A stretch of DNA of 64,000 nt from Bacteroidia bacterium. Lineage in GTDB: Bacteria > Bacteroidota > Bacteroidia > J057 > JADKCL01. The stretch is from positions 5,506 to 69,505 of the forward strand of contig JAXLVK010000014.1 in NCBI GenBank assembly GCA_046329055.1, in the 5' to 3' direction. Under the pieces are notes generated by a model. It was not told where the DNA came from. It did not search any database and saw only the letters and a list, made by a program, of their open reading frames with translations. Position numbers and translations under genes: made by a program. Position 1 is the first letter of the stretch, and each line of letters begins with the position of its first letter. Shown here one piece after another: positions 6,078 through 62,100 of this stretch.

Positions 6078-6091
6078 GTTCCACTACCCCC

Positions 6092-6128: not shown

Positions 6129-6149
6129 GCTGGGTTTGCGACCCTACTG

Positions 6150-7706: not shown

Positions 7707-8291
7707 CTACAGCTCGAACTTCACATTCCTGTAAATTCCCCTCATGGGCACCTTGATGGCGATGGAATGCAGGGCCACAGTATCCTCAAGGCTTTGGTAG
7801 CTCGTGAAATACCATTCGTCCCCGGGCGAGCGGGTATAGACATCCACCTGCGGATGGCTCTGCTCGATGATGACGTACTCCTTGAGGCTGGGTATCGTCC
7901 AATATTTCAGTAGTTTGCCGCCGCGATCCCACTTCATGTTGCCGGGGGAGAGCACCTCGACGATGAGGGTCGGATTGGTGGCAATGTCCTTGCGGTCTGG
8001 CGTGGTTTCAATCTCTCCGCAAATCACAGAGGCATCTGGGAAAACGATCGAACCGTCTGACTCAATCTGAAAGCAGAGATCACCGTTGAAGGCGATGCAT
8101 TCTGTGCCTTCCAATGCGCCCCGGATTTCACTGCCGATATTGAGTCCAATCAGGCTATGGCTGGGAGAACCGCCCGCCATGTCGTAAATCTCACCGTTGA
8201 GGTATTCGGCCTTCCCCTGAATGGAGTCCAGATAGTCCAGGAACACCGACCTGCTCACCTTCTGCCGTTCATCTCGCGCCCATGGAATCAA
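7707..8291 (-). CDS. Uma2-family (DUF820) PD-(D/E)XK-type endonuclease
   Basis: Family-typical motifs: EYLNGEIYDMAGGSPSHSLI, PDASVICGE, NPTLIVEVLSPGN, DRGGKLLKYWTIPSLKEYVIIEQ. The region is visibly AT-richer than its flanks. Confidence 0.75.
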   Translation of the reverse strand: MIPWARDERQKVSRSVFLDYLDSIQGKAEYLNGEIYDMAGGSPSHSLIGLNIGSEIRGALEGTECIAFNGDLCFQIESDGSIVFPDASVICGEIETTPDRKDIATNPTLIVEVLSPGNMKWDRGGKLLKYWTIPSLKEYVIIEQSHPQVDVYTRSPGDEWYFTSYQSLEDTVALHSIAIKVPMRGIYRNVKFEL

Positions 8292-8372
8292 AGATAGAAA
8301 TCAGGCCATGGGAGTCAATAGCCTCTCCATCAACTGACTCGCCAAAGACTTGGTTTGCTAGGATTTACGGCC

Positions 8373-9317
8373 TCAGCCGCGCACCTCATTCACCGCCTTC
8401 ACCACATCCTTCACACCCAGACCGTACTTCTCGAGCAGCTGCTCGGGTTCGCCACTCTCGCCGAAAGTATCGTTCACGGCGACGTAGCGCTGCGGGGCAG
8501 GATGCTTCTCGGCCAAAACTTGCGCGACGGCATCGCCCAGGCCGCCATGGCGGTTGTGCTCCTCGGCGGTGACGACCCGACCGGTCTTCCGGACGGATTT
8601 CAGGATCGCCTCCTCGTCGAGGGGCTTGATGGTGTGCATGTTGATGACCTCGACGGAGACGCCTTGCTCCTTCAGCTCGGCAGCGGCTTGCAGCGCGATC
8701 CAGACCATGTGCCCACAAGCGATCACAGTCACGTCGGTGCCTTCCACCAGCACTTGCGCCTTGCCGATCTCAAATGTCGGATCCTCTGCGGGCGTGAAGA
8801 TGTCCCATTTCGGGCGACCAAAACGCAGATAAACCGGCCCCTTCAAGGCGGCGACAGCCAAGGTCGCGAGGCGCGTCTGATTGTAATCGCAGGGGACGAC
8901 CACGGTCATGCCGGGTAGCATCCGCATCATGCCCACGTCCTCCAGGCTTTGGTGGGTCGCCCCGTCCTCTCCCAGCGTCAGGCCCGCATGGCTTGCGCAG
9001 ACCTTCACATTCTTCTTGCTGTAGCAGACGCTCTGACGAATCTGGTCAAACACCCGCGCCGTGCTGAAATTGGCGAAGGTGCCCGTGAAGGGAATCTTCC
9101 CGCCAATGGTCAAGCCTGCGGCCATCCCGATCATGTTGGCCTCGGAAATGCCGCATTGGAAGAAGCGATCCGGGAACTCTGCCTCGAAGGCGTCCATCTT
9201 CAATGAACCCGTGAGGTCCGCGCAGAGCGCCACCACATCCGGGTTCGAGCGACCCAGCTCCAAGAGGCCCTGACCGAAGCCAGAACGGGTGTCTTTTTTG
9301 CCAGTAGAAACCAACAT
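8373..9317 (-). CDS. Transketolase, C-terminal (pyrimidine-binding) subunit
   Basis: [14 protein letters not shown]...[15 protein letters not shown]...[16 protein letters not shown]. The start was moved to the ATG at 9317 ([12 protein letters not shown]). Confidence 0.9.
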
Positions 9318-9352
9318 TTTGAGTTGACAGTTGAAAGTTGAGAGTTGACAAA
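9318..9352 (-). repeat. TCAACT word repeat forming the leader directly 5' of the 9317 start codon
   Basis: The coding strand reads TTTGTCAACTCTCAACTTTCAACTGTCAACTCAAAATG. A related block precedes the DinB start at 59632. Confidence 0.6.
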
Positions 9353-9370
9353 GACCAGTGGGAAGGCGCG

Positions 9371-10225
9371 TCAATAATCCAAGAACCGGGTGACGGGCAG
9401 CTGCGCCATGGCGCGCTCAAACTGCGCGTCGTTGGGGGCCTTGCCATGCCATTCGTGGGTGCCCTGCATGAAGTCCACGCCGCGGCCCATGTCCGTGGTC
9501 ATGAGGATGCAGATGGGACGGCCACGGTAGGTCGCCCGACGGGCGTCCTCCAGCACGTTGAGCAGGCTCACGTAGTCGTGCCCGGACATGTCCAGCACCA
9601 GCCAGCCAAAGGCCTCGAACTTGCGGCGCATGTCCCCGAGGGCCATGACCTTGTTCACCGGGCCGTCGATCTGCTGACCGTTCCAGTCGATGGTGCAGAT
9701 GAGGTTGTCCACCTTCTTGGCAGCAGCATAGATCACCGCCTCCCAGATTTGGCCCTCTTGCAGCTCGCCGTCCCCGTGCAGGGTATAGACGATGTTCTTG
9801 TCGCCGTTCAGCTTCTTGGAGAGCGCCGCGCCGATGGCCACGGACATGCCCTGCCCGAGCGAACCCGATGCGATGCGCACGCCCGGCAAGCCTTCCTTGG
9901 TCGCAGGGTGACCCTGCAGGCGGGAATTGATCTTGCGGAAAGTGGCGAGCTCATCGACGGAGAAATAGCCGCTCCGCGCCAGAACGCTGTAGAAGACCGG
10001 AGAGATATGGCCATTGGACAGGAAGAAAAGATCCTGATCGCGGCCGTCCATGCTCCAGTTTTGGGGATCGTGGCGGAGGTGGTGGAAATACATCGCGATG
10101 AAAAACTCGGTGCATCCCAGCGACCCGCCCGGGTGTCCCGATTGCACGGCATGTACCATGCGCAGGATGTCGCGCCGCACTTGATCGGCCATTTCCTGCA
10201 TCTCGGGGATAGTGTTCAACCTCAT
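9371..10225 (-). CDS. Transketolase, N-terminal (thiamine-diphosphate-binding) subunit
   Basis: [14 protein letters not shown]...[10 protein letters not shown]...[15 protein letters not shown] are classic TPP-binding transketolase motifs. Lies adjacent to the C-terminal subunit gene. Confidence 0.9.
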
Positions 10226-10304
10226 TGTTTTGAAGAATGGCGCGAAATTACGAAGCCATCCGTTGCTTTAATTCACAATCTTGTTCACAGAAAAATGCCC
10301 CGTC

Positions 10305-11831
10305 CTAAGCGACCAGCGACCAGATGAAGTAGGCCGTGGCCCCCATCAAGGCTGAGATCGGGATGGTGATGATCCACGCGACAAGCAAGCGGCGGGTCAC
10401 ACCCCAGCGCACTGCGGAAAGGCGACGCATGGAACCGGCACCCATGATGGAACCCGTCACGGTATGCGTGGTGGACACGGGAATGGACAGGTTTTCGGTC
10501 AGGAAGAGGATGGAGGCACCCGCAGTGTCCGCGACCACACCTTCGAAGGGCGTGACCTTGGTGATCTTGCTGCCCATGGTCTTGATGATCTTCCAGCCGC
10601 CACTCAGGGTGCCCATCGCAATCGCCCCGTAACAGGACAGCGCCACCCAGTTCGGGATATGGCTCGCATCGGGGATCAGCCCCTCCGCCACCAATGCCAC
10701 AGCGATGATACCCATGACTTTCTGCGCATCGTTGCCACCATGACCGATGCAAAATGCCGCAGAGGACACCAGCTGCATCCGGCGGAACCAGCGCTCAGCC
10801 TTGGCCACAGGCATGCCACTCAGGAACATGGTGAAGATGCTCACGATGGAGACGATGCTCATCAAGAGCAGCCATTTGAAGTTGGTGCCATGGAAGACGA
10901 CCTTGAGCCAGTAGGACTTGAAGCTCGACTTCAGGTGCGAAGTGTCCCAGCGTTCCGTCTCCGGCGAACTCTCCGTGATGCGGTGCGCCTCTACGATATG
11001 GCTGGCCACCTTGGTCTTGGCGGCCCCATCTTGGATCTTGGTCGTCAAGGAGGGGTCCACCGTGGTTTCTCCCGCCTTCTTGAGGAAGTTCGTCTTGACC
11101 GTGAACAGCGTCTTGGTCTGGTCTGGATTTCCGCTGGCATCGTTCGCAGGCTTCACCACCGGGGCAAATTCCTTTTCATCCTTGTCCTTGAAGGTGAAGT
11201 CCTTCTTGAGGTCGTCGCTCTTAACCTCGGAATCAAACTGGATGGTATAGACCGTGCCGCCGAGGAAATCCTTCTTGGTTTCGAGGTTGGACCAGACCAG
11301 GAAGGCCATGCCTCCTATGATTGCCAAGCTGATGAACTTCGGATACAGCGCCTTGCGGAAGCTGTGCAGGAACCACAGGCCGATCAGCATTGCCACCAAC
11401 ATGCCCAGCATCGGGGCCAGCAGGATGAAGCTCGCGGCCTTGATGATGGGGGTGGAATTCAGGCTCTGGAATCCGGCAGCGGCGATCGCGGCACCCATCA
11501 ATCCTCCCAGCAAGGTATGCGAGGAGCTGGACGGAATGCCTTTCCACCAGGTCAACAGGTTCCAAATGATGGCTGCGATGAGCCCGGAGATGATAAGTGG
11601 CAGGGTGATGTAGGGCTCCAAGACGGTTTTGGAAATGGTCTTGGCGACACCATGCTCCGTGAAGATGAAAAACGCCACGAAGTTGAACGCGGCGGCCCAG
11701 ATCACGGCTTGTCGTGCTGTGAGCACACGGGTGGAAACGATGGTCGCCACCGAGTTGGCGGCGTCATGGAATCCATTGATGTAATCAAAGCCTAGGGCTA
11801 GGATGATGATTACAACCAATAAAACGGTCAT
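10305..11831 (-). CDS. PiT-family inorganic phosphate transporter
   Basis: Duplicated PiT signature (GFHDAANSVAT; GHGGNDAQKVMG). Multiple TM helices around a central hydrophilic loop. Confidence 0.9.
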   Translation of the reverse strand: MTVLLVVIIILALGFDYINGFHDAANSVATIVSTRVLTARQAVIWAAAFNFVAFFIFTEHGVAKTISKTVLEPYITLPLIISGLIAAIIWNLLTWWKGIPSSSSHTLLGGLMGAAIAAAGFQSLNSTPIIKAASFILLAPMLGMLVAMLIGLWFLHSFRKALYPKFISLAIIGGMAFLVWSNLETKKDFLGGTVYTIQFDSEVKSDDLKKDFTFKDKDEKEFAPVVKPANDASGNPDQTKTLFTVKTNFLKKAGETTVDPSLTTKIQDGAAKTKVASHIVEAHRITESSPETERWDTSHLKSSFKSYWLKVVFHGTNFKWLLLMSIVSIVSIFTMFLSGMPVAKAERWFRRMQLVSSAAFCIGHGGNDAQKVMGIIAVALVAEGLIPDASHIPNWVALSCYGAIAMGTLSGGWKIIKTMGSKITKVTPFEGVVADTAGASILFLTENLSIPVSTTHTVTGSIMGAGSMRRLSAVRWGVTRRLLVAWIITIPISALMGATAYFIWSLVA

Positions 11832-11841
11832 CGGAAAGGGA

Positions 11842-12492
11842 TCAGGTGGTCTTGATCAGGATGGCCTCCAAGGCGAAGGAGAGCTCAGCGAAGTAGCGCA
11901 TGGCGTTGTCGGTGGCGTAGAAGATCTCGCGGAGCTTCAGGACCAGGGTCTGGTCGTAGTCACCGCTGTACAGGGCCGCCATGCCGTGCATGAAGGTCTC
12001 CTCAGCGCGGGACTTGTGCTCTTGGATGGTCTTGATCTTCGCGGCCAGCATCTTCGGCTGACGCAGGGACTTGAGCATGTGGATGGCCTCAGCGGCTGCC
12101 TCTCCGCAGTCCTGGATATCGGCTGCGAGGTCGAGCAACTGTGTCGGGAAGGTCTTGACGTCGTAGAGGATCACCCGGCGGGCGCCTCCATTCAGTTCGT
12201 CCAGGATCCCGTCCAGCGTGGTAGCGAGGCGGTGGATGTCCTCCCGGTCAAAGGGAGTGAGAAAAGTAGCGGTCAATTCCGTGATCACCGTGTGGATCAC
12301 CTGGTCGCCTTTTTCCTCGGCATCGCTCACTTGATCCGCAAACCGACGGCGGGCGTCGGCATCCTTGGCGGTGAGCAGCTCGAAGTAGGCATTTCCAGCC
12401 AACTTGACTTGCTCCGCGTGGGAATCAAAGAGTGGGTAAAACCTCTTGTCCTTGGGCACCAGCTTCTGAATCAGAGAATTGGCGAAGGACAT
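11842..12492 (-). CDS. DUF47-family (PhoU-like) phosphate transport accessory protein
   Basis: Start moved to the ATG at 12492 (MSFANSLIQKLVPKDKRFYPLF). Helical PhoU-like sequence. Ends 10 nt upstream of the PiT gene, the usual pairing. Confidence 0.85.
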   Translation of the reverse strand: MSFANSLIQKLVPKDKRFYPLFDSHAEQVKLAGNAYFELLTAKDADARRRFADQVSDAEEKGDQVIHTVITELTATFLTPFDREDIHRLATTLDGILDELNGGARRVILYDVKTFPTQLLDLAADIQDCGEAAAEAIHMLKSLRQPKMLAAKIKTIQEHKSRAEETFMHGMAALYSGDYDQTLVLKLREIFYATDNAMRYFAELSFALEAILIKTT

Positions 12493-12643
12493 GCGGGAAT
12501 AGGCACCTGTCTGTTTGGATTTTGAATCGCGCTCTTGCACAACTGTAGCTTCTGCGATCATACAAAGAGAAAACTGCTTTATGCAGCACTCCAAATATCG
12601 ACATTACCCTTGAGTCAAATATTTCCGGGATGTTAAATAAATG

Positions 12644-13036
12644 TTACGTCTCAAGGGCACTGTCCCTCAATGCGGTAGGCGAGCCGGACAGGAATTTTCC
12701 ATCAAAAAATACCTGAAGGAATTCATCCAGCTCATTTTCCCAACCTCCGGTGAGCAGCAGGGTATGGGCCTCCGCATCGTCGCGGTCCAAGGGCAAGTCC
12801 TGACAAATGCCCAACACGGTAAGCCCCCATTGCTGCAGGTTGTTGCCACACATGTCCGGCTCATTCATCCAGACCAGAAAGCAGCGTTCCCAGCTCCGCC
12901 CAAACTCCAGGCGCTGCCGACAGCCCCAGCTCCCGGAGCCGCCGTGGGCATGCAGCAGTTCCCAACCATGCCCGTCCATGGCCTGAAAAATCGGCTTCCA
13001 AGCCTCCGGCAAGCCCAATTCTGGATAAGTGATCAT
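12644..13036 (-). CDS. Hypothetical small protein (weak SUKH/SMI1-KNR4-like flavour)
   Basis: The ATG at 13036 overlaps the upstream stop (ATGA). The sequence MITYPELGLPEAWKPIFQAMDGHGWELL looks protein-like. The opposite-strand ORF 12641-13108 was judged non-coding. Confidence 0.5.
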   Translation of the reverse strand: MITYPELGLPEAWKPIFQAMDGHGWELLHAHGGSGSWGCRQRLEFGRSWERCFLVWMNEPDMCGNNLQQWGLTVLGICQDLPLDRDDAEAHTLLLTGGWENELDEFLQVFFDGKFLSGSPTALRDSALET

Positions 13037-14637
13037 GCGCTGGGCAATTGTCTTGCAAATGTACTGGCGTGGGCCTCCAGCATGTGGACCTCCCAACCCG
13101 CAGGGTAGGGTGGCGTGAGCAGGCTGCCGGGCTCCAGGTAGGGATAACTTTCGTCGTAACGCGCCACGACGGTCTGCGACTCGTTCCGGTGGATATGGGC
13201 GCGGTTGATCTGCGTGGATCGCTTCAGCCCCGTCGCCGCCAGCAATTCCCGGAAGGCCTTCACAGTCTCGCCATGGAAATTGGCGACGCGCTGCTTCTTG
13301 TCAGCCACGACCAAGCCCTTCATCAGCTCCGGCTTCTGTGTCGCCACCCCGGTCGGGCAGATGTTCTTGTTGCATTCGAGGCTCTGGATACAGCCCAGCG
13401 AAAGCATGAACCCTCGGGCCGCATTGCAGCCATCCGCCCCGATCGCCAGTGCGCGGTAGATGTCGAATGCCGTCGCGACCTTGCCAGAGGCGATGAGCTT
13501 GATGTCCCGCTTCAGGTCAAATCCCACGAGCGCATCATAAACGAATGCCAATCCATCCCTCAGCGGCCAACCCACACTGTTGCTGAACTCCACGGGCGCC
13601 GCGCCTGTGCCGCCCTCTCCCCCATCCACCGTGATGAAATCCGGCCGGATGCCAGTCTCCACCATGGCCTTGCAGATGGCCAAGAACTCGCTCTTCTGAC
13701 CCAAGCAGAGCTTGAAACCAACGGGCTTGCCCCCGCTGAGCTCTCGCAGCTGCGCGATGAACTGCATCATCTCAATGGGGGTGTGAAATGCGGTATGGTA
13801 GGGCGGAGAGTTCACCGTGGTGCCGGGTGTGACCCCGCGGATGGCAGCAATCTCAGGCGTGTTCTTGGCGGCGGGCAGGATGCCTCCATGGCCGGGCTTC
13901 GCCCCTTGGGAGAGTTTGAGCTCCACCATCTTTACCTCAGGTCGCTGGGCATTTTCTGCAAATGCCTTTGCCGAAAATCCCTCCTTGCCGGGTTCACGCG
14001 CCCCAAAGTAGCCCGTCCCGACTTGGAAGATGATGTCCCCGCCGTTTTCGAGGTGGTACTTGCTGATGCCGCCCTCCCCGGTGTTGTGCGCGAATCCCCC
14101 GATCTTGGCGCCGCCGTTCAGGGACATGATCGCATTGGGGCTGAGGCTGCCATAGCTCATCGCGGAGATGTTCAGGATGCTCGCCGAGTAGGGCTGCTTG
14201 CAGGCCGGGCCGCCGATGAGGATGCGGGGATCCTCCTCCACCGCGTGGTGGTCCAGCGCGGCGATGCTGTGGTTCACCCACTCGTAGCCCTCGGCATAGA
14301 CATCGAGCTGCGTCCCGAAGGGGGCCGTGTCCAGCTCCTTCTTGGCCCGCTGATAGATCACCGACCGATCGATCCGTGAAAATGGCCGCCCATCAATGTC
14401 ACTCTCCACGAAGTACTGGTAGATCTTCGGGCGCAGGAATTCCATGAAATACCGTCCCCGGCCCAGCAAAGGGAAGTTTCTCCGGATCGTCTGCCGCGTC
14501 TGCAACATGTCCATCCATCCCAGCACCAACAGCGGCCCGATCAGCACCAATGAAAACAGGACCGGCCACCAAAAGGGCGCGATTGCCCCGATGGCGATCA
14601 GGACCACGACCGTGAAAACGACAAATTCATTCCGCAT
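13033..14637 (-). CDS. FMN-binding glutamate synthase-family (GltB domain 2-like) protein with N-terminal TM helices
   Basis: LSQGAKPGHGGILP, ITVDGGEGGTGAAP and ASGKVATAFD are typical of the GltS FMN domain family. Confidence 0.85.
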   Translation of the reverse strand: MRNEFVVFTVVVLIAIGAIAPFWWPVLFSLVLIGPLLVLGWMDMLQTRQTIRRNFPLLGRGRYFMEFLRPKIYQYFVESDIDGRPFSRIDRSVIYQRAKKELDTAPFGTQLDVYAEGYEWVNHSIAALDHHAVEEDPRILIGGPACKQPYSASILNISAMSYGSLSPNAIMSLNGGAKIGGFAHNTGEGGISKYHLENGGDIIFQVGTGYFGAREPGKEGFSAKAFAENAQRPEVKMVELKLSQGAKPGHGGILPAAKNTPEIAAIRGVTPGTTVNSPPYHTAFHTPIEMMQFIAQLRELSGGKPVGFKLCLGQKSEFLAICKAMVETGIRPDFITVDGGEGGTGAAPVEFSNSVGWPLRDGLAFVYDALVGFDLKRDIKLIASGKVATAFDIYRALAIGADGCNAARGFMLSLGCIQSLECNKNICPTGVATQKPELMKGLVVADKKQRVANFHGETVKAFRELLAATGLKRSTQINRAHIHRNESQTVVARYDESYPYLEPGSLLTPPYPAGWEVHMLEAHASTFARQLPSA

Positions 14638-14700
14638 GCCACAGATTTACAGCATATCGCGCATTTTTCCAATCTGGAAAGTCTCCGCATCTTTACCCCC

Positions 14701-15801
14701 ATGGCCTGCCCTCGCTTCATCCCCCACTCTGCCCTCAGGACCTTGCTGGCCTTGACTGTTTGCCTCTTGGGGGTGGGGAAGCCTGTGCCGGGACGCTCAA
14801 CTGATCCGCCCGCGATTCCATCAGATTCAATCCATCCAGCACAAGTGTCCAGCGGATATTCCTTTCTGGCAGGCGGGCACTGGTATGGCGCACATGAAAA
14901 CGTGCATTCGCTGCGGGTTGCGTCGTCACTGTACGCTGCAATACCTGCGATCAAGGCAGCCCAACCGGACAGGATTTTCGCCCTCGGTGACGTGGTGAGG
15001 GATGCGGGCGACGTAAGACAAATCCATGGCTTCGTTGACCTTCAGACGGAAATCGGGGTGGGTATCCGTGTCGCACCGGGAAACCATGACCTGAATCGAA
15101 ACGGCTATTTCCGATTCCCACACCGGTTCGGAACAGGGAACACATTTACATATTTCAATGGTGACAGGTTCTTGGTCTTGAATACCGAGATGCTGGTCAA
15201 CAAGCAATCACATGATTTGATCGAGTTTGTGCAGAAGTCATTCGTAGATGTTCCGGAAGGACGGAATCTCTTCGTCTTCACGCACCGACTGGTTTGGGCG
15301 CTCGCGGAGCCGGGATTCTCAGAGATGGACGACTTCGCAAATGAGCCGATCGGGGACAAGGCGCCCTTGGATTCCATCAAAATGCTCTACGATGCCGTCT
15401 GTCGCCATGCGCCATCAGGGAGGATGTGGTGGTTCAGCGGGGATGTGGGGGCGAGTTGGTCCCTGACCTTGTTTGAGGGGCGGAGCCGGGACGGGCTGCG
15501 GCATTTTTATGCAGCGGGCTTGGGTGACAGGCCCGAGGACGCCTTTTGGCGGGTGGATGTGGACAGTTTGGGGGAGGTGAATGTGTCGCCATTTCCCTTG
15601 GTGGATGCAAAGGCATTGGAGCCGCATCAGGATTTGCAGTATTGGCGGGGGAAAATGAAGGAGGTGATGGCGGAGAATCAGGCACCTGGTGGACTGGGTT
15701 TTGGGCGGCTGCTGCAGACGCTATCGCTGTGGATCGGGTTGGTGCTGGGTGCATTGATCGGGGTGCTGGGCATGTATGTGATTCGGCGTCGGAAGCGCTG
15801 A
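14701..15801 (+). CDS. Calcineurin-like metallophosphoesterase with a C-terminal TM anchor
   Basis: Signal-like N-terminus. Motifs GDVVRDAGD, APGNHD and VFTHR. C-terminal helix LWIGLVLGALIGVLGMYVI. Confidence 0.65.
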   Translation: MACPRFIPHSALRTLLALTVCLLGVGKPVPGRSTDPPAIPSDSIHPAQVSSGYSFLAGGHWYGAHENVHSLRVASSLYAAIPAIKAAQPDRIFALGDVVRDAGDVRQIHGFVDLQTEIGVGIRVAPGNHDLNRNGYFRFPHRFGTGNTFTYFNGDRFLVLNTEMLVNKQSHDLIEFVQKSFVDVPEGRNLFVFTHRLVWALAEPGFSEMDDFANEPIGDKAPLDSIKMLYDAVCRHAPSGRMWWFSGDVGASWSLTLFEGRSRDGLRHFYAAGLGDRPEDAFWRVDVDSLGEVNVSPFPLVDAKALEPHQDLQYWRGKMKEVMAENQAPGGLGFGRLLQTLSLWIGLVLGALIGVLGMYVIRRRKR

Positions 15802-15807
15802 GTTGCC

Positions 15808-16719
15808 ATGGGGTTTTCTGCCTACATTGGCCTGACGATTGATCAAGACATGGACATTTTCAACGGCAACAAGAAACTAGAGGAAGTCATTTTTGATGCC
15901 CTCGACTACGCACTGTACTCCCGCCATGATATCCGGGATGTCTTCGTACCCTTCATGGTGCTGCACAGTGGTGGGGAGAGACGGCTCGTGCGCCTGGTTG
16001 GCGGTGGCGATCCCAATGCGGGCTTTGAGCAAATGTTGCGGGGTATGACCGAGTCCTACGACTTTATCGCGACCTGTTGCGAGGGCCGCATGACACATGG
16101 TGACACCAAGCAAGACGCGATCTTTGTCAAGGGATTTGACACCAGCCTGCCGGAGGGATTTCTGTTTGGGCAGCGCTTCCAGGGCATCGAATCCGGCGGC
16201 CCATTCAGGAAGCTGGGCAATCCCGCCCTGTTGAGCAAAACGGAGCCGCTTCCGGTGCCGCTCGTGGCGCGCGACGAGGATGAGGAGTACGATGAGCCGT
16301 ACGTATCGGGCATGGTCGTGAAGGCCCCCCATGGTTCGACCAAAAGGGTCATCGTGGCCAGCCATACCAGTGCCTCGGTGCTGAGCCCGGCGCTCTTTGA
16401 TTTCGTGGTCCAGGCGATATCCAAGGCAGAGCCAGACTTCTCCGGCGAATTCCTCTTCAATTTCGTCCCCGATTCCCTCAAGAACGATGGGCTGAACCGC
16501 TTCATCCTGGACATGCTGCACCAGGATTTGCTGGAGTTCCTGGCAGTAAAGGCTTGGGAATCCAAAACCGGGCACAGACTGCAGATTTCGCTGGAGTTCA
16601 ATGATGGGAAGGGCGAGATCAAGCTGGCACGCACTGGCGGCAACAAATCGGGAGGCGCGTCTGGTGGCAGCAGTGGAAGCACCGCACAAGGGAAAAAACC
16701 GTGGTGGAAGTTCTGGTGA
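15808..16719 (+). CDS. Hypothetical protein (303 aa)
   Basis: Starts 7 nt after the upstream stop. No recognised motif. Gly/Ser-rich tail ends in KKPWWKFW. Confidence 0.55.
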   Translation: MGFSAYIGLTIDQDMDIFNGNKKLEEVIFDALDYALYSRHDIRDVFVPFMVLHSGGERRLVRLVGGGDPNAGFEQMLRGMTESYDFIATCCEGRMTHGDTKQDAIFVKGFDTSLPEGFLFGQRFQGIESGGPFRKLGNPALLSKTEPLPVPLVARDEDEEYDEPYVSGMVVKAPHGSTKRVIVASHTSASVLSPALFDFVVQAISKAEPDFSGEFLFNFVPDSLKNDGLNRFILDMLHQDLLEFLAVKAWESKTGHRLQISLEFNDGKGEIKLARTGGNKSGGASGGSSGSTAQGKKPWWKFW

Positions 16720-16869
16720 GACAGAAACGAGTTCCGAGCGGGAGTGGCACCACCACCCGGCCCTGACTGGCATCAGCTCGTATCCCATTCTAGCCCATTC
16801 AGGCAGCACCGTGGCTGGATGGCACCAAGCCACCCCATCATTGTAGCAGAATGAACACCATTCAAAATC

Positions 16870-18093
16870 ATGAAACCTGAAAACAGCATCTCCAAGTCCA
16901 AGAATGTCCTACTGATCAACTCCGACAGCGAGGCCCTTCCGCCCGAAGTGCAGACATTGATGGCAGATTTCTGCGGGGTCGTCGTGAGGAGCCTTGCCGA
17001 AATCCAAGACGAACTCCGCTCCACGAAGCTCTATTTCTGCGGCGACGCCAGCGGACTGCGAGACCTGGACATGCCCGTTTCCATCATTCAGGAATTTTCA
17101 TCGGGCTTCGAAGGCTCAGCCAATGAACACCATCGCTTGATTTCCCTTGGCAAGGTGCCTGTAGTGGTGCAGGGTGCCGGGGTGTATTTCCGCGAATTCT
17201 TCAATGGGAAGGACCATTTCCACAAGATCAAGGCCGAGCACCAATTCCAGAACCTCACCGATTCTAACAAGCCGGGGACGGCATTCCGCAAGGGGATTTA
17301 CCTCAGCGAGGTCCTGCGGGAAGAGAATCCGGAACAAGGTGAAGGCTACCGGTTCCATCTGCTGCGCTGCTCCAGCAACCTCAGCGGCCCCACTGACAAT
17401 TTCCGGACGACGGACCGCGAGATCGTCCAGGCCATCAATGCAGCGGCTCGGGAGGTCTTCGAATTGGAGACGGCATTGAACCACGTCCTCGCGCAGGTCT
17501 ATGAAAACAAGGCATTGACCGAGACCCAAGGCAAGGAGAAGAAGGCCAAGATCAAGGCGCATTCCGACAAGACCAAGGACATGGCTCCAGAGGGATTGAT
17601 GGCCTTCTGCACGTTTTATGACCCCACGCAGTTCAATCACCTCAAGCCCTCCTCCACCGACCGCTTCGACTGGGTGCGCAATGGGATTAGCGGATTGACA
17701 CGGCTGCATTTCCGGCTCAAGGAAGCTGCGACCGACCCGACCTTGCCCCGCGAATTCAGCGTGACTCTGTATCCGAACTCGGTGTTTTTCGTCCCGCTGT
17801 CCACCAATCGCCTCTATACCCACGAGATCAGGCCCTCCATCTTGAGCGTGGAGCAAATCCCGACCCGCCTCGGCTACGTCGTCCGCTGCTCCAACAAGGA
17901 GGCCTTGCATTCCGGCGGGCAGACTTATGTGAATGAATACGGCGAATTGATCCCACTTGTGCCGATGACCCACGAAGGCATGGTGGATCTGAAGACAAAA
18001 TACCGCGAGGAAAACACCTCGGTCGAGCGCATCGTCTATGGCCCGGTGGATTTCAGCATGAATGAGGGGGATTATGAGCGGCCGATATGGTGA
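16870..18093 (+). CDS. AlkB-like 2OG-Fe(II) dioxygenase-superfamily protein with extra N- and C-terminal regions
   Basis: HxD...H...R arrangement: KIKAHSDKTKD, NRLYTHEIRPS, RLGYVVRCS. Clear paralogy to 18407-19239. Confidence 0.6.
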   Translation: MKPENSISKSKNVLLINSDSEALPPEVQTLMADFCGVVVRSLAEIQDELRSTKLYFCGDASGLRDLDMPVSIIQEFSSGFEGSANEHHRLISLGKVPVVVQGAGVYFREFFNGKDHFHKIKAEHQFQNLTDSNKPGTAFRKGIYLSEVLREENPEQGEGYRFHLLRCSSNLSGPTDNFRTTDREIVQAINAAAREVFELETALNHVLAQVYENKALTETQGKEKKAKIKAHSDKTKDMAPEGLMAFCTFYDPTQFNHLKPSSTDRFDWVRNGISGLTRLHFRLKEAATDPTLPREFSVTLYPNSVFFVPLSTNRLYTHEIRPSILSVEQIPTRLGYVVRCSNKEALHSGGQTYVNEYGELIPLVPMTHEGMVDLKTKYREENTSVERIVYGPVDFSMNEGDYERPIW

Positions 18094-18406
18094 CAGCCCA
18101 CCCTCCTGTCCCGGCGAAGTCGCGGAGCGGAGGCCCAACCCTCCTGTCATGTCGAGCGGAAGCCCAAGGGGCTGAAGCCGAGAACTACGAAGCAACTGCG
18201 AAGCACATCACGAAGACCGCTGAAAAAAACGTCACTGAGTACATCACGAGTGCCGCAGAAAAGGAGCAAAGACGAGTACATCTAGCGCACATAGCTAGCG
18301 TGTTACTGTCCATGCCAGATGTCTCGGCTACGCTCGACATGTCAAATGAAGCAGTTCTCGGCTAGGCTCAACATGACAAAGGCATTCCCAATATCTTGAA
18401 CCCCCA
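18094..18406. repeat. MITE-like or dispersed intergenic repeat
   Basis: Internal inverted copies of the CGCTCGACATGACA motif at 18145-18158 (inverted), 18331-18344 and 18364-18377. Shares blocks, including the exact 13-mer CATCTAGCGCACA (18279-18291), with 41572-41740. Confidence 0.5.
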
Positions 18407-19239
18407 ATGTGGCAGATGAATCCTCCCGCCTTCCATCAACTCCACCTCTCGCTCGGCGAGGACATGTTCGCAGAACTGTCGCAGTCCGCTGCATTAGAGG
18501 ACGTCGCCAAGGGCCGCAAGGGCAATCACCTCGTGGATCCGAGCGCGGCAGGCATTCCCCTTGTGCGCACCACGACGCAATACCATTTGCCTGCGAGCCC
18601 GTTCTTGGAGGTGCATCGCAGGGTAGTAGGGAGCATCCAAGCCGCAGCTGTCAATGCACCGGGGTTGCAAGACAAGCCCATCGCCTTCAACAATGCATTG
18701 ATCGAGATCACGACCACAGCTATACCAGCATGAAGTACCACAGCGATCAATGCCTCGACATCGCAGAGGATTCCTTCATCGCGCTGTATTCCCGCTATGA
18801 AAGCCCGACAGCAATGCGCCCCGGAGACGCCCGCAAGCTGAAAGTCCGCAGCAAATCAGGCGATGCAGAATTCGAATTCGACCTCGCTCACAATTCCGTG
18901 ATCCTGTTCTCCACCGAGACAAATGCGCATTTTCAGCACAAAATCGTCCTCGAACCTGCCAAAGGGGCCACACCCATCCCCGAACGCGGCCGGTGGCTGG
19001 GCATCACGTTCCGGCTGTCCAAGACTTTCATCCATTTCCGGGACGGGAAGCCGTATTTCCCAAATGGAATCGAGCTGCGGCTGGCGGATGCGGAAGAGAG
19101 CAAGGAGTTCTACCGCCTGCGAGGTGCGGAGAATGCAGCGGTCGGGTTTGTGTATCCAGAGGTGGGGTACACGATCAGTGAGGGGGATTTGATGGAGGTG
19201 GAATTTGAAGAAGATTCGCCCCGAAATCCATTGACGTAA
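18407..19239 (+). pseudogene. Frameshifted AlkB-like 2OG-Fe(II) dioxygenase, paralog of 16870-18093
   Basis: The N-terminal part (frame of 18407) stops at 18733. The remainder, with MKYHSDQ (HxD), HFQHKI and RWLGITFRLS, is in the frame of 18409. Both halves align to the upstream paralog. Confidence 0.6.
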
Positions 19240-19250
19240 GTGGCTGAAAT

Positions 19251-19889
19251 ATGCTGATTCCCAGAAACAACACTCCTTGGAAGAAAAGCCGAAAATTCGG
19301 CGACGTGATGGGCGGGCGCACCCATCCCAAGATTGCTGACCGGGTATTCAACCGAAAGCACAACCTGACTGCTCCGACCGAAGGAACTGTACTGCCCATT
19401 TTCATCACGGACAATCCTTCGAGGGACTTCTATTTTCCGATCAGCACCGATGACATTCAGGCTGCATTGGACCGCCTTCCAGCAGAACATACGCAGCATC
19501 TCACCCATGTATGGCTCCAAAAGTTCCGCAAATCGGATTACCAGGAGGGGGAGACGATCCAAGGTTGTTTCATCCGTGGCAGCGGGGTTTGCCTCATTGT
19601 GTTGCATCCCTTCCCCAAGGATCTGAAAATGCGATTTGGGAAGGAAAAGCCGTCCAATAGCAAAGTCAAGTATTATCAGCCATTCGATCCAAGCCTCGGA
19701 GAGGACAAACTGGGATGGTACTTGCTTTGGGATGAGAAGGAAATCCGGAGGTATTACCTCGACAGCCTTCTCCTCTATTTAGTGGGGTTCGCAGTAGCGG
19801 ATTCTCACGGCCTGTACCAGGGCAAAGCCCATGTCGCGAAGTCTGAGAAGTGGGCGGAGAATTATGCCAAGGTTTGGGGGAAAGGGTAA
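19251..19889 (+). CDS. Hypothetical protein (212 aa)
   Basis: Starts 12 nt after the upstream stop. Sequence is protein-like but has no recognised motif. AT-richer composition. Confidence 0.5.
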   Translation: MLIPRNNTPWKKSRKFGDVMGGRTHPKIADRVFNRKHNLTAPTEGTVLPIFITDNPSRDFYFPISTDDIQAALDRLPAEHTQHLTHVWLQKFRKSDYQEGETIQGCFIRGSGVCLIVLHPFPKDLKMRFGKEKPSNSKVKYYQPFDPSLGEDKLGWYLLWDEKEIRRYYLDSLLLYLVGFAVADSHGLYQGKAHVAKSEKWAENYAKVWGKG

Positions 19890-20001
19890 CGGAATTCAAG
19901 GGCATCGCGGATGAAAGCTATAGCACCAAGTTTTTCGATTGACGAAGTAATCGGTCAGTACAATCAGCAAGGCAAATGGCTCCATCCCCAATCCATGCCG
20001 C

Positions 20002-20829
20002 TCAAACCCCTTTGCCAGCAATGAGCTGATGGACTTGAGCCTCGGTCTTGCCCGATATTGCGGAGATTTGTGCAACGGGAAGTCCAGCGCTGTGCATGGC
20101 CAAAATCATCTCCCTCTTGCCTTGCTCGACCAGAAAAATCTCACGCTGCGCCATGTCAGTGAGGTAGATACCAAAGTCGTCGTAGGCATCTCGCTCCGCC
20201 TTGGTCCAGGATTGTTGGTCGGCATCGAGATAGGCGGTCTTGAGGCCATCATCATCGACATTGCTGGGAATGACCGCCAAATGTTCGGCATTCTTGATGA
20301 AGTAGGCCCACTTGTCCACCATGCTGACCAACTCATGCTCCTTTTTGTCAAACTTTCGCAGCTCGATGAAGAAGTACTTCACATCAGAAAGTAGGTTTTC
20401 ACCTGTCATGGTGTCAACCGTCTGATGCGTGGAGAAGTAGCTGGGATTCTGGGTGAAGTTGAAGTCCAAGATACCGATGAAGTAGGTCGGCTTCAGTTTC
20501 GGGTAGTCATCCCCGCGTTCGATTTGTGTGGAGTAGTCGCGGGCGACATAGTACTGTACCCGCTTGTCAAAGCCCACCTTCTCGGCGACTTGCAACTCAA
20601 CGATGAATTTGCGACCGCCCTGATCGGTGGCCTTCACATCGAGAATGCTCGTCTTGCCCGCAGGAACAGGTGGAAATAGGTAGGGATTCTCGACCGTGAC
20701 ACTCACCACCCTGTTGGAGCCGTCCGCGAAAAGCACCGCGTTCAGGAACGAGATGAGCGTGATGGTCTTGTTGGCATTGCCAAAAATCTTGTGGAAGGCC
20801 ACATCGTTCTTGACATCGACGAATTTCAT
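20002..20829 (-). CDS. Rpn-family recombination-promoting nuclease / putative PD-(D/E)XK transposase (YhgA-like)
   Basis: From the ATG at 20829: MKFVDVKNDVAFHKIFG..., ILDVKATDQGGRKFIVELQV, YYVARDY, PTYFIGILDF. Confidence 0.8.
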   Translation of the reverse strand: MKFVDVKNDVAFHKIFGNANKTITLISFLNAVLFADGSNRVVSVTVENPYLFPPVPAGKTSILDVKATDQGGRKFIVELQVAEKVGFDKRVQYYVARDYSTQIERGDDYPKLKPTYFIGILDFNFTQNPSYFSTHQTVDTMTGENLLSDVKYFFIELRKFDKKEHELVSMVDKWAYFIKNAEHLAVIPSNVDDDGLKTAYLDADQQSWTKAERDAYDDFGIYLTDMAQREIFLVEQGKREMILAMHSAGLPVAQISAISGKTEAQVHQLIAGKGV

Positions 20830-20850
20830 GCTGTGAGCGATTTTAAGGTG

Positions 20851-20858
20851 CAAAGATA
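20851..20858 (-). promoter_or_regulatory. Bacteroidota -7 promoter-like motif (TAtcTTTG) upstream of the Rpn gene
   Basis: The minus strand reads CGTATCTTTGCACC, 22 nt upstream of the ATG. It matches the TAnnTTTG consensus. Confidence 0.3.
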
Positions 20859-20942
20859 CGGAAATTCGCGGGAGGTTGCTTCTTCGAAGGGGAATCGAAT
20901 CCTCCCCCCGCATCCCCTTTTTTAGTAACTTGCCGCCCTTTT

Positions 20943-23207
20943 ATGAAAGGCTGGGGCACATACACACTGGGCACTAGGAATGGGCTGATCGCCCTCCTCC
21001 TCTTTTTGTGTATGGCCTCCCTCCTCCACGCCCAGCGGCTCGACGACGACATCGACAACTTCCCCAAGCTGCCGCAGGACAGCAGCCGGGTGGAGGCCCT
21101 TTGCCGCATCAGCGATGCGCTCATGCGGGATTATCCCGACTCGGCGATGGCGTTTGCTGGGCAGGCGATGGCGATCAGCCGCAAGGTGAATTACCTCCCG
21201 GGACAATCGCGGGCGCGGCTCCTTCAGACGAGGGCCTTCATCGCCAAGGGCGATTTTGAGAATGCGGAGGCCTCCCTGAGCATCTGTGAATCGGAATTCG
21301 GGCAGGCGGCGGACATGCACGGGCTGGCGGATTGCGCGCTTGCGCAGGCGGAACTGGGCATGGCCCGGCGCAACTGGACCAAGGCCCTCGCGGCTTGCCA
21401 CAAGGCGGATTCGCTCCTGCAAGGCGACTCATTGGCATGGTGGGCGACGGCGCACCTGCGCGGTCGGCTGTTCCAGGAACTGGGCAGTTTGGATCAGGCG
21501 GGGCAATATTTCGGCGAGGCGATCCGGCTGGCTTCGGTCAAGGGCGACGTCCGCGGTCATGGCCTGGGTTGCGAATCCTTGGGGCAAGTCCAGCTTTCAC
21601 AAGGCCGCAATGACAGCGCTGCGATTCAATTCAGGGATGCATTCGAGGCTTGGAAGGCAGCGGGTGACCGCAATGGGCAATCCTCGGCATTGATCGGTGA
21701 GGGAACGGCGGCGGTGCGGGCTGGGCGGCCGGAAAATGGCTTCCAACTCCTGCGCAAGGCCTACATCATCGCATTGGAGGATGGGGCGCGGCAAAGGGCG
21801 GCATTGGCATTGATCCGGCTGGGTGAATCGGAGGTGAAGCTGGGGCAGCCCGACTCGGCGCTCAAGCGCTGCGCGGACGCGGTGACACTGCTGCGGCAGC
21901 CCAAGGATCTGAACCTCGCGGTGGATGCGCGCATCGGATTGGTGCAGGCGTTGCTGATCAAGGGTGACTATGCGCGGGGCATCCGCCATGGGGACACGGC
22001 GATCGCATTGGCGGACAGCTTCAAGCTCTTCAAGCCATTGGCGACGGTGAACCTGCTCATTTCCAGGGCCTACCAGACCACAGGCGATTACCGCCGGGCC
22101 CTCGACCACTTCCAATGGGCGAGTGCAGCCAAGGACAGCCTGCAAAGGCAGCGCGACCGCAACCAAACCACGGCATTGCAGGTGCGGCTCACGGACGAGG
22201 AGGAGTTTTCCGGCAGGCACAAGATCGAGCAGGCACAGGCTGCAGCCGAGGCGGCGCAATCCGATGCCAAGACCTACCAATTGTTGTTCTGGATCGGCTT
22301 GGGGGCATTGATCCTGGGCATTGGGCTGGGTGGATGGGTCGTGTTGCGGGCAAATGGCCGTGCACGCAAGCTCTCCCAACGGGTCCGTGAGCAAAACGAC
22401 GAACTCGGCCGTACCAAGGAGGAACTCGCCCGCGTGAGCACCCGCCTGCAGGAAAGCAACTTTGACTACGAATCGGTGATCGCTGAGCGGACGGAGACCT
22501 TGCAAGAGGCCGTCGAAAGCCTGATTTCCGAAAATGAGGCCTTGGAGGAATTCATCAACCACAGCGCCAATGACCTGCTCGGCCCGGTCGCACGGCTCAA
22601 GGGATTGGTCTCCGTCGCCCGCAATTCCGGCCAAATCAAGGACCTGATCCAGGCCATCGACCTGATCGACGCGGTGAGCACCTACATGGACAAGGTGATC
22701 CGCAAACTCATCGCCTCCCACGAACTCAAGCACGGCTTCAAAAGTCCGGAGCAGGTGAACTTGGAGGAATTGATCTTGGACATCATCCCGCAGCTCAAGC
22801 AGATTCCCGGCGTCAAATACCCGGACATCCGCCTCGACGACCGCCTCAAGCGTCCGGTGTTCGTGGACCGCAACATGATCCGTGTGATCTTGGAGAACCT
22901 GCTGGAAAATGCCTGCGTCTTCCGCAAGGACGTGAACAACGACTCCCCCAAGATCGATGTGCTGCTCCAAAAGGAGGACGAAGGCATCATGATCCGCATC
23001 CACGACGAAGGTATCGGCATCCCGAACAACATCCGCGACCAGATTTTCAACCTCTTCTTCCGGGGCAATGAGCGCTCCAAAGGCGTGGGCCTCGGCCTGC
23101 ACCTCGTGCAACGTGCATTGCGTCAGATTGGCGGCCGCGTAGCCGTGGAAAGCAAGCAGGGCATGTTCACGGAATTTACCGTTCGGTTCAGGGAGTACGA
23201 GGGCTAA
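20943..23207 (+). CDS. TPR-repeat sensor histidine kinase (orphan)
   Basis: Signal/TM, long TPR-like region, TM (LLFWIGLGALILGIGLGGWVV), coiled coil. HATPase_c blocks: ILENLLENACVF, DEGIGIP, GVGLGLHLV. Confidence 0.85.
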   Translation: MKGWGTYTLGTRNGLIALLLFLCMASLLHAQRLDDDIDNFPKLPQDSSRVEALCRISDALMRDYPDSAMAFAGQAMAISRKVNYLPGQSRARLLQTRAFIAKGDFENAEASLSICESEFGQAADMHGLADCALAQAELGMARRNWTKALAACHKADSLLQGDSLAWWATAHLRGRLFQELGSLDQAGQYFGEAIRLASVKGDVRGHGLGCESLGQVQLSQGRNDSAAIQFRDAFEAWKAAGDRNGQSSALIGEGTAAVRAGRPENGFQLLRKAYIIALEDGARQRAALALIRLGESEVKLGQPDSALKRCADAVTLLRQPKDLNLAVDARIGLVQALLIKGDYARGIRHGDTAIALADSFKLFKPLATVNLLISRAYQTTGDYRRALDHFQWASAAKDSLQRQRDRNQTTALQVRLTDEEEFSGRHKIEQAQAAAEAAQSDAKTYQLLFWIGLGALILGIGLGGWVVLRANGRARKLSQRVREQNDELGRTKEELARVSTRLQESNFDYESVIAERTETLQEAVESLISENEALEEFINHSANDLLGPVARLKGLVSVARNSGQIKDLIQAIDLIDAVSTYMDKVIRKLIASHELKHGFKSPEQVNLEELILDIIPQLKQIPGVKYPDIRLDDRLKRPVFVDRNMIRVILENLLENACVFRKDVNNDSPKIDVLLQKEDEGIMIRIHDEGIGIPNNIRDQIFNLFFRGNERSKGVGLGLHLVQRALRQIGGRVAVESKQGMFTEFTVRFREYEG

Positions 23208-24693
23208 GCCCCGGAATCCAAGCCTTCAGTTCCATCTTCTGATCCACCTTCCACATCGGCACCCAAAGCGTGTCCTTCCCCGAAAATGCGGGCAGGAAAT
23301 GCACCACCTCATTTTCCCCCATCACCTCAGCAGGCAGCGGGTTGCGGTTGGAGACGAACAGGTATTGCCCCATGCCTGAGAGTTCGGCCTCTTTGGTCAG
23401 GAGGTGATCCATCTGAAAACTGTCATGCAGACATGTTCGGATCCGGCTTCCTCCTTCCTCCAAGAATCTGCGACTGAAGTGGTAGCCCCATTCGCCCGTC
23501 CTGATGAACCGCTCGCGGTCATGGAGTTCATCTGCCACGGATTCCAGCAAATGATCCAGATACGCCGGATCGCTGAACACCGACAGCTTTTGGAAGTACT
23601 CCCGCACAAACCGATCATCCCGAAACGGAAAATCCCCCATGACCTCGTGGTAATCCCCGACCGGATTCCATCCGTCCACGCGGTAACCCCAAATCGGGCC
23701 GTTGATATAGGTGTCCTCGCCCTGACCGGAGAAGCCGTCGTAGCCCACAGGCTCAAGCTGGCTCGAAACGGGATTGAAATAGTACCGCCGGTTGTGCCAA
23801 ATCAAGCTATGGTAGGCTCCAAACAAGTCGGTGAGGGCATAGTAGCTCGCCGTCCGATGCAGGTCGATCATGTCCATCGGGACGCCAGAGCCTTGGCGGT
23901 ATTCTGCCATCAACTGGTCGGCGAAGTGAAATTCGGCGAGGTTGGCTGAGTCGCGGAGGATGGATTTGGGCTTGAAGGGCCGCACAGGCGCTGCCTCCAA
24001 GAATGGCGTAAGCATGTACGGAAATGCGCTGTCCCGCAATGCCGCGACCCGCGCCTCCCACATCCCGGTTTCGTCGATCCGCAGGATGGGTCCCTCTGGC
24101 CTGCCTTGGCGACGCAGCAATTGCGGGGTGAAATGCTCCTCGACCGCGTACGGCCCCCAATCCTCACCATTGACGGCGAGCCGGATGAAGTCATAGCGCG
24201 GCGCCAAAACGCCCTCGGCTTGCAGGGCCTTGTGGTAGAGCCATTCCTTCAGGTGGTCCCTGCGGCGCGGCAGCATCAAGGAGAAGTCGGTCAGACCCCG
24301 CCAAGCCTTGTCGCCCTTGACCTCGACACGGAATGACCACCGGTCGTCTTGGATATGATCGGTCCAGTCGCCCTTGAGGCGCAATTCGACGGGCCAATCT
24401 TGGTCGCCTTCTGTCAATTCAGCTTCGACCCAGCTTTCGTCGGTTTCGCGCAGGACGCCGATTTGCAGGGCTTGCTCGCGGATGGCGTTGAGTTGTGCCA
24501 TAGCTGCAGGCTCGATTCGGAGCTCGATGGACTGCATCGATGGGAAGGTGTGGGGGGAGAGGTCGCTGGACGACTTTTTGTCCGGGCTCATTGTCGCCAA
24601 TGCAACCAAGAACAGAACCGGGATCGCCAATGCCAGCAACACCACGCTCCATGAGGATCGTGCCTTTTGGGCGGGGTGATGATGGATGGACAT
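23188..24693 (-). CDS. CotH kinase-family protein (N-terminal TM/signal anchor)
   Basis: WPVELRLKGDWTDHIQDDRWSFRVEVKGDKAWRGLTDFSLMLPRRRDHLKEWLYH...VNGEDWGPYAVEEHF. Paralogous to the core of 24940-27864. Confidence 0.75.
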   Translation of the reverse strand: MSIHHHPAQKARSSWSVVLLALAIPVLFLVALATMSPDKKSSSDLSPHTFPSMQSIELRIEPAAMAQLNAIREQALQIGVLRETDESWVEAELTEGDQDWPVELRLKGDWTDHIQDDRWSFRVEVKGDKAWRGLTDFSLMLPRRRDHLKEWLYHKALQAEGVLAPRYDFIRLAVNGEDWGPYAVEEHFTPQLLRRQGRPEGPILRIDETGMWEARVAALRDSAFPYMLTPFLEAAPVRPFKPKSILRDSANLAEFHFADQLMAEYRQGSGVPMDMIDLHRTASYYALTDLFGAYHSLIWHNRRYYFNPVSSQLEPVGYDGFSGQGEDTYINGPIWGYRVDGWNPVGDYHEVMGDFPFRDDRFVREYFQKLSVFSDPAYLDHLLESVADELHDRERFIRTGEWGYHFSRRFLEEGGSRIRTCLHDSFQMDHLLTKEAELSGMGQYLFVSNRNPLPAEVMGENEVVHFLPAFSGKDTLWVPMWKVDQKMELKAWIPGLSPRTP

Positions 24694-62099: not shown

Positions 62100-62100
62100 A

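Follow-up and report, generated by a model that had tools for sequence, protein, structure and literature searches.

We analyzed a 64,000-nucleotide stretch of the genome of a Bacteroidia bacterium (assembly GCA_046329055.1, contig JAXLVK010000014.1, positions 5,506 to 69,505; hereafter, the window), and in particular a run of five plus-strand open reading frames (ORFs), named here g1 to g5. Two of them, g3 and g4, form a conserved two-gene cassette, predicted to encode two diverged modules of the AlkB family of Fe(II)/2-oxoglutarate dioxygenases. The best explanation is probably that the cassette specifies a two-module AlkB-like dioxygenase acting on damaged or modified nucleic-acid bases, a substrate that we infer, and that this copy is decaying.

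In the mechanism proposed here, the g3 and g4 modules would operate as one enzyme, produced from one transcript in bacteria and as one fused polypeptide in some eukaryotes; gene linkage, natural fusions, and a structure model are consistent with a physical complex of the two. The enzyme would oxidize alkylated or otherwise modified DNA or RNA bases, like AlkB, ALKBH2, and ALKBH3, and would often stand alongside an endonuclease V-like nuclease handling deaminated purines. In the window, a repeat element has separated g4 from g3, g4 has probably lost one base with a shift of its frame, and a 1.7-kb insertion with an Rpn gene and a degenerate gene of an HExxH family has replaced the 3′ tail of g4.

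Linkage of g3 and g4 across genomes

One genome per species was scanned, with 128 loci confirmed and 80 kept; the loci retrieved by way of g3 number 87 in all. In 82 of these, g3 has a g4 homolog downstream on its own strand, and in 81 the gap is 0–42 bp. These loci are mostly from Bacteroidota, with examples in Chitinophaga, Flavobacterium, Kordia, and a close relative of the genome studied here; four of the five remaining loci break off where g3 ends or shortly beyond it. An earlier reading of the window from its letters only (the sequence-only reading) had placed the pair in a larger cluster; that g3 and g4 are a widely conserved two-gene unit could not be seen from the letters.

The two modules also occur in a single chain. 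A search of 1.84 billion representative proteins with a profile of the N-terminal domain of g3 gave 196 matches, the domain being N-terminal in every case. Eight of these 196 proteins are 700–990 aa long and fusion-like, and all seven that were scored match both the g3 and the g4 profile, in operon order; in the fusion P0329, for example, g3 matches residues 44–458 (E = 3.5e-139) and g4 residues 468–722 (E = 1.9e-86). The fusions are found in eukaryote-type sequences, one of them being Cvel_12286 of Chromera velia. The AlphaFold2 model of the fusion P0279 has a pLDDT of 87.5 and a pTM of 0.82 with an ordered linker, which suggests that the two modules would pack in a defined way in the fused chain. 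Its best Foldseek matches are ALKBH2 and ALKBH3 (E = 2e-10, target TM 0.70–0.73).

A third arrangement was found in IMG/VR, where six contigs carry g3 (L215–L220); one is labelled GVMAG, and four are 154–439 kb long with 31–36% GC. In all five of these loci that extend past g3, g4 is adjacent and tail-to-tail with it. In L216, g3 (4995–6215, plus strand) and g4 (6194–6952, minus strand) overlap by ~20 bp at their 3′ ends. The genes being convergent in these giant-virus-like contigs, linkage is kept there without a shared transcript, and a linkage that appears as an operon, as a fusion, and as a convergent pair is strong evidence of mutual dependence.

The cassette is also present in cyanobacteria, namely, Calothrix sp. 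NIES-4101 (L045) and Nostoc linckia FACHB-104 (L047), at ~54% identity. Since this is the identity seen between orders of Bacteroidota, the comparison suggests transfer of the cassette between phyla.

A recurrent endonuclease V-like neighbor

Of 84 loci, 28 have, next to the pair, a gene of ~170 codons for an endonuclease V-like (EndoV-like) protein. According to the record titles, the hosts are Flavobacterium, Arcicella, Pedobacter, Formosa, Winogradskyella, Cellulophaga, and several metagenome-assembled genomes (MAGs). The gene usually overlaps the g4 stop by 4 nt; L017 and L022 have it upstream of g3 instead. Its product matches PF04493 (E = 2.4e-9, 37.6 bits against a threshold of 23.4) and aligns with Escherichia coli endonuclease V, Nfi (hhalign, 95% probability, E = 3.6e-8). 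The YIPGxxxxRE, VDG, and IGVAK motifs of Nfi are kept, whereas the protein is shorter (~170 aa against 223 aa) and the GH motif of Nfi reads IG. The window itself does not contain the EndoV-like gene.

All-against-all clustering and phmmer searches of the flanking ORFs found no other neighbor shared across genera. Synteny is otherwise at the genus level; for example, Chryseobacterium loci share S1/P1 nuclease, sigma-70, and GNAT genes, and Kordia loci a DNA_alkylation gene. Taken with the AlkB-type fold described below, the EndoV-like neighbor suggests that the pair would oxidize nucleic-acid bases that are damaged or modified. A literature search found no description of the pair, of a link between AlkB and EndoV, or of the Chromera protein.

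Predicted AlkB-type fold of the two modules

The g3 product is 100% identical to the NCBI entry U0176_05600, annotated as a hypothetical protein. Its homologs (n = 2,672), nearly all of which carry the same annotation, are ~400–410 aa long and share ~55% identity over the full length; they occur in Chitinophaga, Flavobacterium, Kordia, Chryseobacterium, Pedobacter, and other hosts. An N-terminal alpha/beta domain (residues ~1–95), additional to the g4 architecture, precedes a core that is an AlkB-type double-stranded beta-helix with H231-S-D233, H318, and R333-x5-R339, and a C-terminal extension of ~65 aa terminates in an invariant FSMNxGDY motif. Residues H231, D233, H318, R333, and R339 are invariant in an alignment of 32 sequences, and the window copy deviates at only three of 139 conserved columns, always conservatively. 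A search of PDB with Foldseek, starting from the AlphaFold2 model of g3 (pLDDT 83.7, pTM 0.88), placed ALKBH2, ALKBH3, AlkB, FTO, and ALKBH5 on top (E = 4.6e-8, target TM 0.68–0.70), so that the 2-oxoglutarate oxygenase fold, for which the sequence-only reading had proposed such a check, is the one predicted.

The same reading had called g3 and g4 paralogs, and the comparison of the two bears this out. BLASTP gives E = 2e-6 at 23% identity, and residues 101–406 of g3 are paralogous to the entire g4 (profile-profile alignment, 96.6% probability, E = 5e-10, 252 columns), C-terminal extension included. In relatives, g4 is ~265 aa long and consists of the catalytic core and the extension, without the N-terminal domain. 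The HSD motif and the distal His are invariant in the g4 family, hhalign puts them on H131-x-D133 and H187 of AlkB, and the spacing from the distal His to the two positions of the R-x5-R motif is that of AlkB (17 and 23 residues). At the first of these positions (R204 in AlkB), the g4 family has an invariant Trp, and only the second Arg (R210 in AlkB) is kept.

In the Pfam AlkB family model, PF13532 (gathering threshold of 31.2 bits), the window copy of g4 scores 21.8 bits (E = 2.4e-4), and g4 homologs carry precomputed matches. Among the g4 modules of the seven fusions, five score 31.7–53.3 bits, one scores 26.3, and one gives no match, while relatives of g3 are mostly without a match. The AlkB-like assignment made earlier thus stands at the fold level for g3 and at the sequence level for the relatives of g4, with both window copies under the PF13532 threshold. 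Of the finer features noted at that time, the HxD...H pattern of both paralogs is invariant in both families, the extra N-terminal domain of the first copy is recovered in the model (~95 aa), and the shared C-terminal extension (~65 aa) is recovered in the profile alignment; the Arg said to follow the pattern holds as R-x5-R in g3 and, in g4, for the second Arg only. On these predictions, g3 and g4 share the AlkB-type fold.

Probable decay of the window copy

The sequence-only reading had listed g4 as one of five genes and had overlooked a frameshift in it. The frame opened by the ATG at 18407 terminates at 18733, and it is the 18409 ORF whose frame holds the conserved C-terminal part. When the two frames are joined at 18709/18710, a 277-aa protein results that aligns with g3 across the junction and, against the 82 loci, as a single tblastn segment at 40–55% identity. 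Two metagenome contigs, L004 and L005, come from a close relative. L004 reads ATC TAC GAC and the window ATC -AC GAC, i.e., one base is lost from a near-invariant Tyr codon; this one-base deletion at 18709/18710 shifts the frame, and the site is not a homopolymer run. We rejected programmed −1 frameshifting, since GAG ATC ACG ACC contains no slippery heptamer and the reading frame is uninterrupted in relatives.

A less likely alternative is that the organism has an intact g4 and that the base went missing through an error of assembly or consensus calling in the MAG. A single base is missing, the frame is open on either side of it, and the HxD, His, and Arg residues are all retained in the window copy. 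Assembly error fits less well with the position of the deletion outside a homopolymer run, and it leaves two further lesions, the 313-bp insertion upstream of g4 and the replacement of its last ~15 codons by inserted DNA. Moreover, g4 differs non-conservatively at five of 61 near-invariant columns, to be compared with the three conservative deviations in 139 columns of g3. We therefore favor decay of the cassette over an assembly error.

The first of these further lesions is the spacer between g3 and g4, which is 313 bp long against 0–42 bp in relatives. It contains the inverted repeats TGTCATGTCGAGCG (18145–18158) and CGCTCGACATGTCA (18331–18344), the arms of which are 14 nt long, 93% complementary, and 172 nt apart, with duplicated arm units; the RNA fold of the spacer has z = −3.2. 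The core CATGTCGAGCGNAGCCGAGA (19 specified bases) was found in at least 120 metagenome stretches with varied flanks, as an arm of a palindromic element of ~80–110 nt. The exact 24-mer of the left arm had no match in metagenomes, the spacer had none in Rfam, and no second copy was found in the window or in the loci of the close relative. The claim that a repeat like a miniature inverted-repeat transposable element separates the paralogs can then be kept in a loose sense, for the inverted repeats and the recurrent core, and lacks a second copy in the window.

The second lesion is an insertion into the 3′ tail of g4, immediately before a histidine kinase gene. By blastn and alignment, positions 19195–20880 are without counterpart in L004, where g4 runs directly into the kinase gene. 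At its edges, neither a target-site duplication nor terminal (inverted) repeats were found. The lower GC content of this part, described earlier as an AT-richer stretch at 19.2–20.9 kb, was confirmed (0.51–0.54 at 19.0–20.9 kb, 0.55–0.60 in g1–g4, and 0.64 downstream).

The insertion carries two genes. One is the minus-strand Rpn gene, rightly placed downstream of the five ORFs in the sequence-only reading; its assignment to the Rpn (YhgA-like) PD-(D/E)XK recombination-promoting nucleases is firm with both Pfam and NCBIfam (PF12784, E = 8.2e-50, 170.1 bits, cut-off 27.4; TIGR01784, E = 1.5e-30, 106.9 bits, cut-off 52.1), and the gene is located in inserted DNA of lower GC that lacks the terminal repeats and target duplication we looked for. 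Its true start is likely Met29 at 20829, because homology to the g4-kinase junction of the relative resumes at ~20880, inside the longer ORF. The other is g5, which belongs to a family of ~220-aa proteins (86 homologs). Of 36 aligned members, 32 have the motif HE[IVL]GH (HExxH, zincin-like), a pattern suggestive of a zincin-like family that had escaped recognition; the window copy reads YLVGF, and three further aligned members are without the motif. Searches with g5, by sequence and by profile, gave no significant match in Pfam or PDB. Two g5 homologs elsewhere sit in arrays of small hypothetical genes, and no Rpn gene was linked to g5 at the family loci examined.

Weighing the function of the pair

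Some observations weigh against a two-module enzyme acting on nucleic-acid bases. At the level of sequence, the window g3 scores 16.3 bits with PF13532, below the threshold, its profile has no match among PDB sequences, and the profile alignment with E. coli AlkB is weak (E about 0.1–0.25). With regard to the proposed substrate, which we infer, median isoelectric points (pI) are mildly acidic, ~6.0 for the g3 family and 5.8 for the g4 family. Nucleic-acid-binding AlkB enzymes are usually basic. Judging from the alignment, 2-oxoglutarate binding by g4 may be atypical, because the invariant Trp occupies the position of Arg204 of AlkB. Two loci depart from the linkage: in L057 (Raineyaceae MAG, 5679–7557), a gene for a PAS-repeat protein comes after g3, and the remaining 1.9 kb of the contig contain no g4, and in L083 (Saprospiraceae MAG, 7621–9325), two lipoprotein-like genes lie between g3 and g4. 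Four fusions (P0264, P0288, P0329, and P0353) contain low-complexity inserts and have a hydrophobic, transmembrane-like start, which is odd for a repair enzyme and hints at membrane anchoring or organelle targeting of the eukaryotic proteins. The evidence from the fused chain is one model, judged by its pTM. Finally, the frameshift in g4 could be an assembly error.

Some of these points would be accommodated if the pair hydroxylated a protein or a small molecule, as a tandem-domain oxygenase similar to OGFOD1/Tpa1, an explanation that we regard as rather unlikely. It would agree with the acidic pI, with the membrane-anchor-like N-termini of the fusions, and with the Trp that replaces one AlkB arginine in g4. 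OGFOD1 is among the matches of the fused model, and the fusions likewise put two beta-helix oxygenase-like modules in one chain. This match is however poor (TM 0.17–0.25, rmsd ~22 Å), with no sequence relationship beyond the superfamily, whereas AlkB-family DNA/RNA enzymes rank on top with a target TM of ~0.7. The second domain of OGFOD1 is non-catalytic, and both modules here keep the iron ligands. The sole recurrent neighbor, moreover, is the EndoV-like nuclease. The sequence-only reading had left the choice between nucleic acids and proteins; nucleic-acid bases are now favored on the basis of fold and neighbor, with the protein or small-molecule substrate kept as the rival just described.

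Less probable again is that g3 and g4 are independent AlkB-like enzymes with different substrates, as ALKBH2 and ALKBH3 are, co-regulated and forming no complex. Both modules have a full HxD...H triad, their identity is only 23%, there are bacteria that have several AlkB genes (PMC2790896), g3 stands alone in L057, and in the window a well-conserved g3 is next to a broken g4. Independence does not readily account for natural fusions in the same order as the operon, for linkage in three arrangements, including convergent genes for which no shared transcript is possible, or for the pTM of 0.82 of the fused-chain model. We thus consider a two-module AlkB-like dioxygenase acting on nucleic-acid bases the better explanation.

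Gene layout and neighboring genes

The features of the region are listed in Table 1. All five plus-strand ORFs described earlier are real, with the reservation that g4 is not one intact ORF. The gaps between them, in order from g1 to g5, are 6, 150, 313, and 11 bp, and the description of short gaps therefore suits the first and the last, not the 150-bp and 313-bp ones.

Table 1. Features of the analyzed region (coordinates refer to the window)
Feature	Position	Strand	Description
Glutamate-synthase-domain protein gene (left flank)	13033–14637	−	PF01645, E = 2.5e-81; 92.6% aa identity to L004
g1	14701–15801	+	366-aa ORF
g2	15808–16719	+	303-aa ORF
g3	16870–18093	+	407 aa, large AlkB-like module, intact
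g3-g4 spacer	18094–18406	none	313 bp, composite of short palindromic repeat units
g4	~18407–19239	+	Small AlkB-like module, disrupted
Insertion	~19195–20880	none	~1.7 kb, boundaries approximate, carries g5 and the Rpn gene
g5	19251–19889	+	212 aa, HExxH-family member, motif lost
Rpn-family PD-(D/E)XK nuclease / putative transposase gene	20002–20913	−	PF12784, TIGR01784
TPR-containing histidine kinase gene (right flank)	20943–23207	+	HATPase_c and TPR matches; 86.6% identity to L004

The g1 product has a signal-peptide-like N-terminus and a hydrophobic C-terminal anchor. It had been called a metallophosphoesterase, and it is weakly similar to that family, with GD and GNHD motifs in the sequence; the Pfam match does not sustain the call, since PF00149 gives 20.0 bits (E = 0.001), under the cut-off of 21.5, and there is no match among PDB sequences. 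Among the 87 loci, only L004/L005 carry a g1 homolog (68% identity). The g2 family is very rare (16 homologs detected, in unrelated contexts), and g2 has no match in Pfam, NCBIfam, PADLOC, or PHROG, nor in PDB by sequence or profile. Its true start is probably Met15 at 15850 rather than 15808, because this Met is invariant in the family alignment and the homologs begin there. Both g1 and g2 are unrelated lineage-specific neighbors, outside the conserved unit.

In L004, the gene order is Glu_synthase, g1, g2, g3, g4, TPR histidine kinase, and CotH. The start of the kinase gene (10042–12306) overlaps the end of g4 (9212–10057), so that in that lineage the kinase and the oxygenase pair may share a transcript; in the window, this arrangement is disrupted by the insertion of g5 and the Rpn gene. 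Within window positions 12500–24558, the flanks are 83–84% identical to L004 in DNA and 87–93% in protein. The corresponding values for g1–g4 are 68–78% and about 54–71%, and these genes thus evolve faster than their neighbors.

The sequence-only reading had proposed that the five genes are one accessory module, possibly acquired horizontally, and had suggested checking whether the 303-aa and 212-aa ORFs co-occur with the dioxygenase and whether the island is present in related strains. Among the 87 loci, g2, like g1, accompanies the pair only in L004/L005, and g5 never does; g1–g4 are present in L004, and g5 and the Rpn gene are absent from it. Horizontal acquisition can then be retained for the g5/Rpn part, whereas g1–g4, being syntenic with the relative, are resident rather than newly acquired. 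A single functional acquired module bounded by the Rpn gene is very improbable: in its favor are the common strand, a few short gaps, the lower GC of the 3′ part, and the g1–g4 synteny kept in one relative, and opposed to it, beyond the co-occurrence counts and the relative without g5 and Rpn, are the unrelated contexts of g2 and g5 homologs elsewhere and a g1 that looks exported or membrane-anchored next to oxygenases that look cytoplasmic. Since g1, g2, and g5 are rarely or never with the pair and have contexts of their own elsewhere, the five-gene module does not exist as such, and the region is probably a mosaic, in which inserted DNA lies next to resident genes, around a decaying g3-g4 cassette. 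Scans of the five proteins with PADLOC, PHROGs, and NCBIfam returned the Rpn gene and noise-level matches, and a known defense system is therefore unsupported.

Additional repeats were observed elsewhere in the window. A 102-nt direct repeat (71% identity) has copies at 24280–24381 and 27031–27132, 2.75 kb apart; one copy lies within a 501-aa ORF (23188–24693) whose L004 counterpart has a weak CotH match, and the repeat pair may mark paralogous genes. Tandem direct repeats with ~72-nt spacing are present at 31666–31880, and 34-nt repeat units at 62092–62206.

Comparison with known AlkB systems and significance

Bacterial AlkBs of groups 1A, 1B, 2A, and 2B (van den Born et al. 2009) are single proteins built from a catalytic core, a nucleotide-recognition lid, and an extension at the N-terminus; PMC2790896 gives their size as 190–220 aa and counts three in Flavobacterium johnsoniae. 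The paired g3 (407 aa) and g4 (~265 aa) fall outside this architecture. Because canonical AlkBs are single proteins and F. johnsoniae has three, the pair is probably not a simple substitute for AlkB.

With AlkB, ALKBH2, and ALKBH3 (PF13532), the pair shares the predicted fold (target TM 0.68–0.73, E down to 2e-10) and the HxD...H iron ligands; g3 also shares the R-x5-R motif, and relatives of g4 exceed the Pfam threshold. The differences are that two diverged modules are linked where bacterial AlkBs stand singly, that g3 has its extra N-terminal domain and both modules a C-terminal extension of ~65 aa, that g4 has the invariant Trp at the first Arg of R-x5-R, and that both have an acidic pI.

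A more far-reaching reading, which we advance only tentatively, is that the cassette is a distinct enzyme type, an obligate two-module AlkB-like dioxygenase, heteromeric or fused, with two active sites. Such an enzyme would be common to Bacteroidota, some cyanobacteria, alveolate-type eukaryotes, and giant viruses. Together with the EndoV-like nuclease, it would install, remove, or repair a nucleic-acid base modification beyond those handled by single-chain AlkBs.

AlkB-family enzymes are treated as single-protein systems of direct repair or demethylation, and the branch formed by the pair departs from this picture. The branch is large (thousands of sequences) and highly conserved, it falls below or just above the Pfam threshold and has no matching NCBIfam model, and it extends over bacteria, eukaryote-type sequences, and giant-virus-like contigs. 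The cassette is thus widespread and uncharacterized, and the copy in the window would be a case of ordinary genome erosion. If the two modules are indeed one enzyme, they would represent a new architecture within the AlkB family and would offer candidates, open to testing, for base repair or modification so far unexplained in Bacteroidota and protists.

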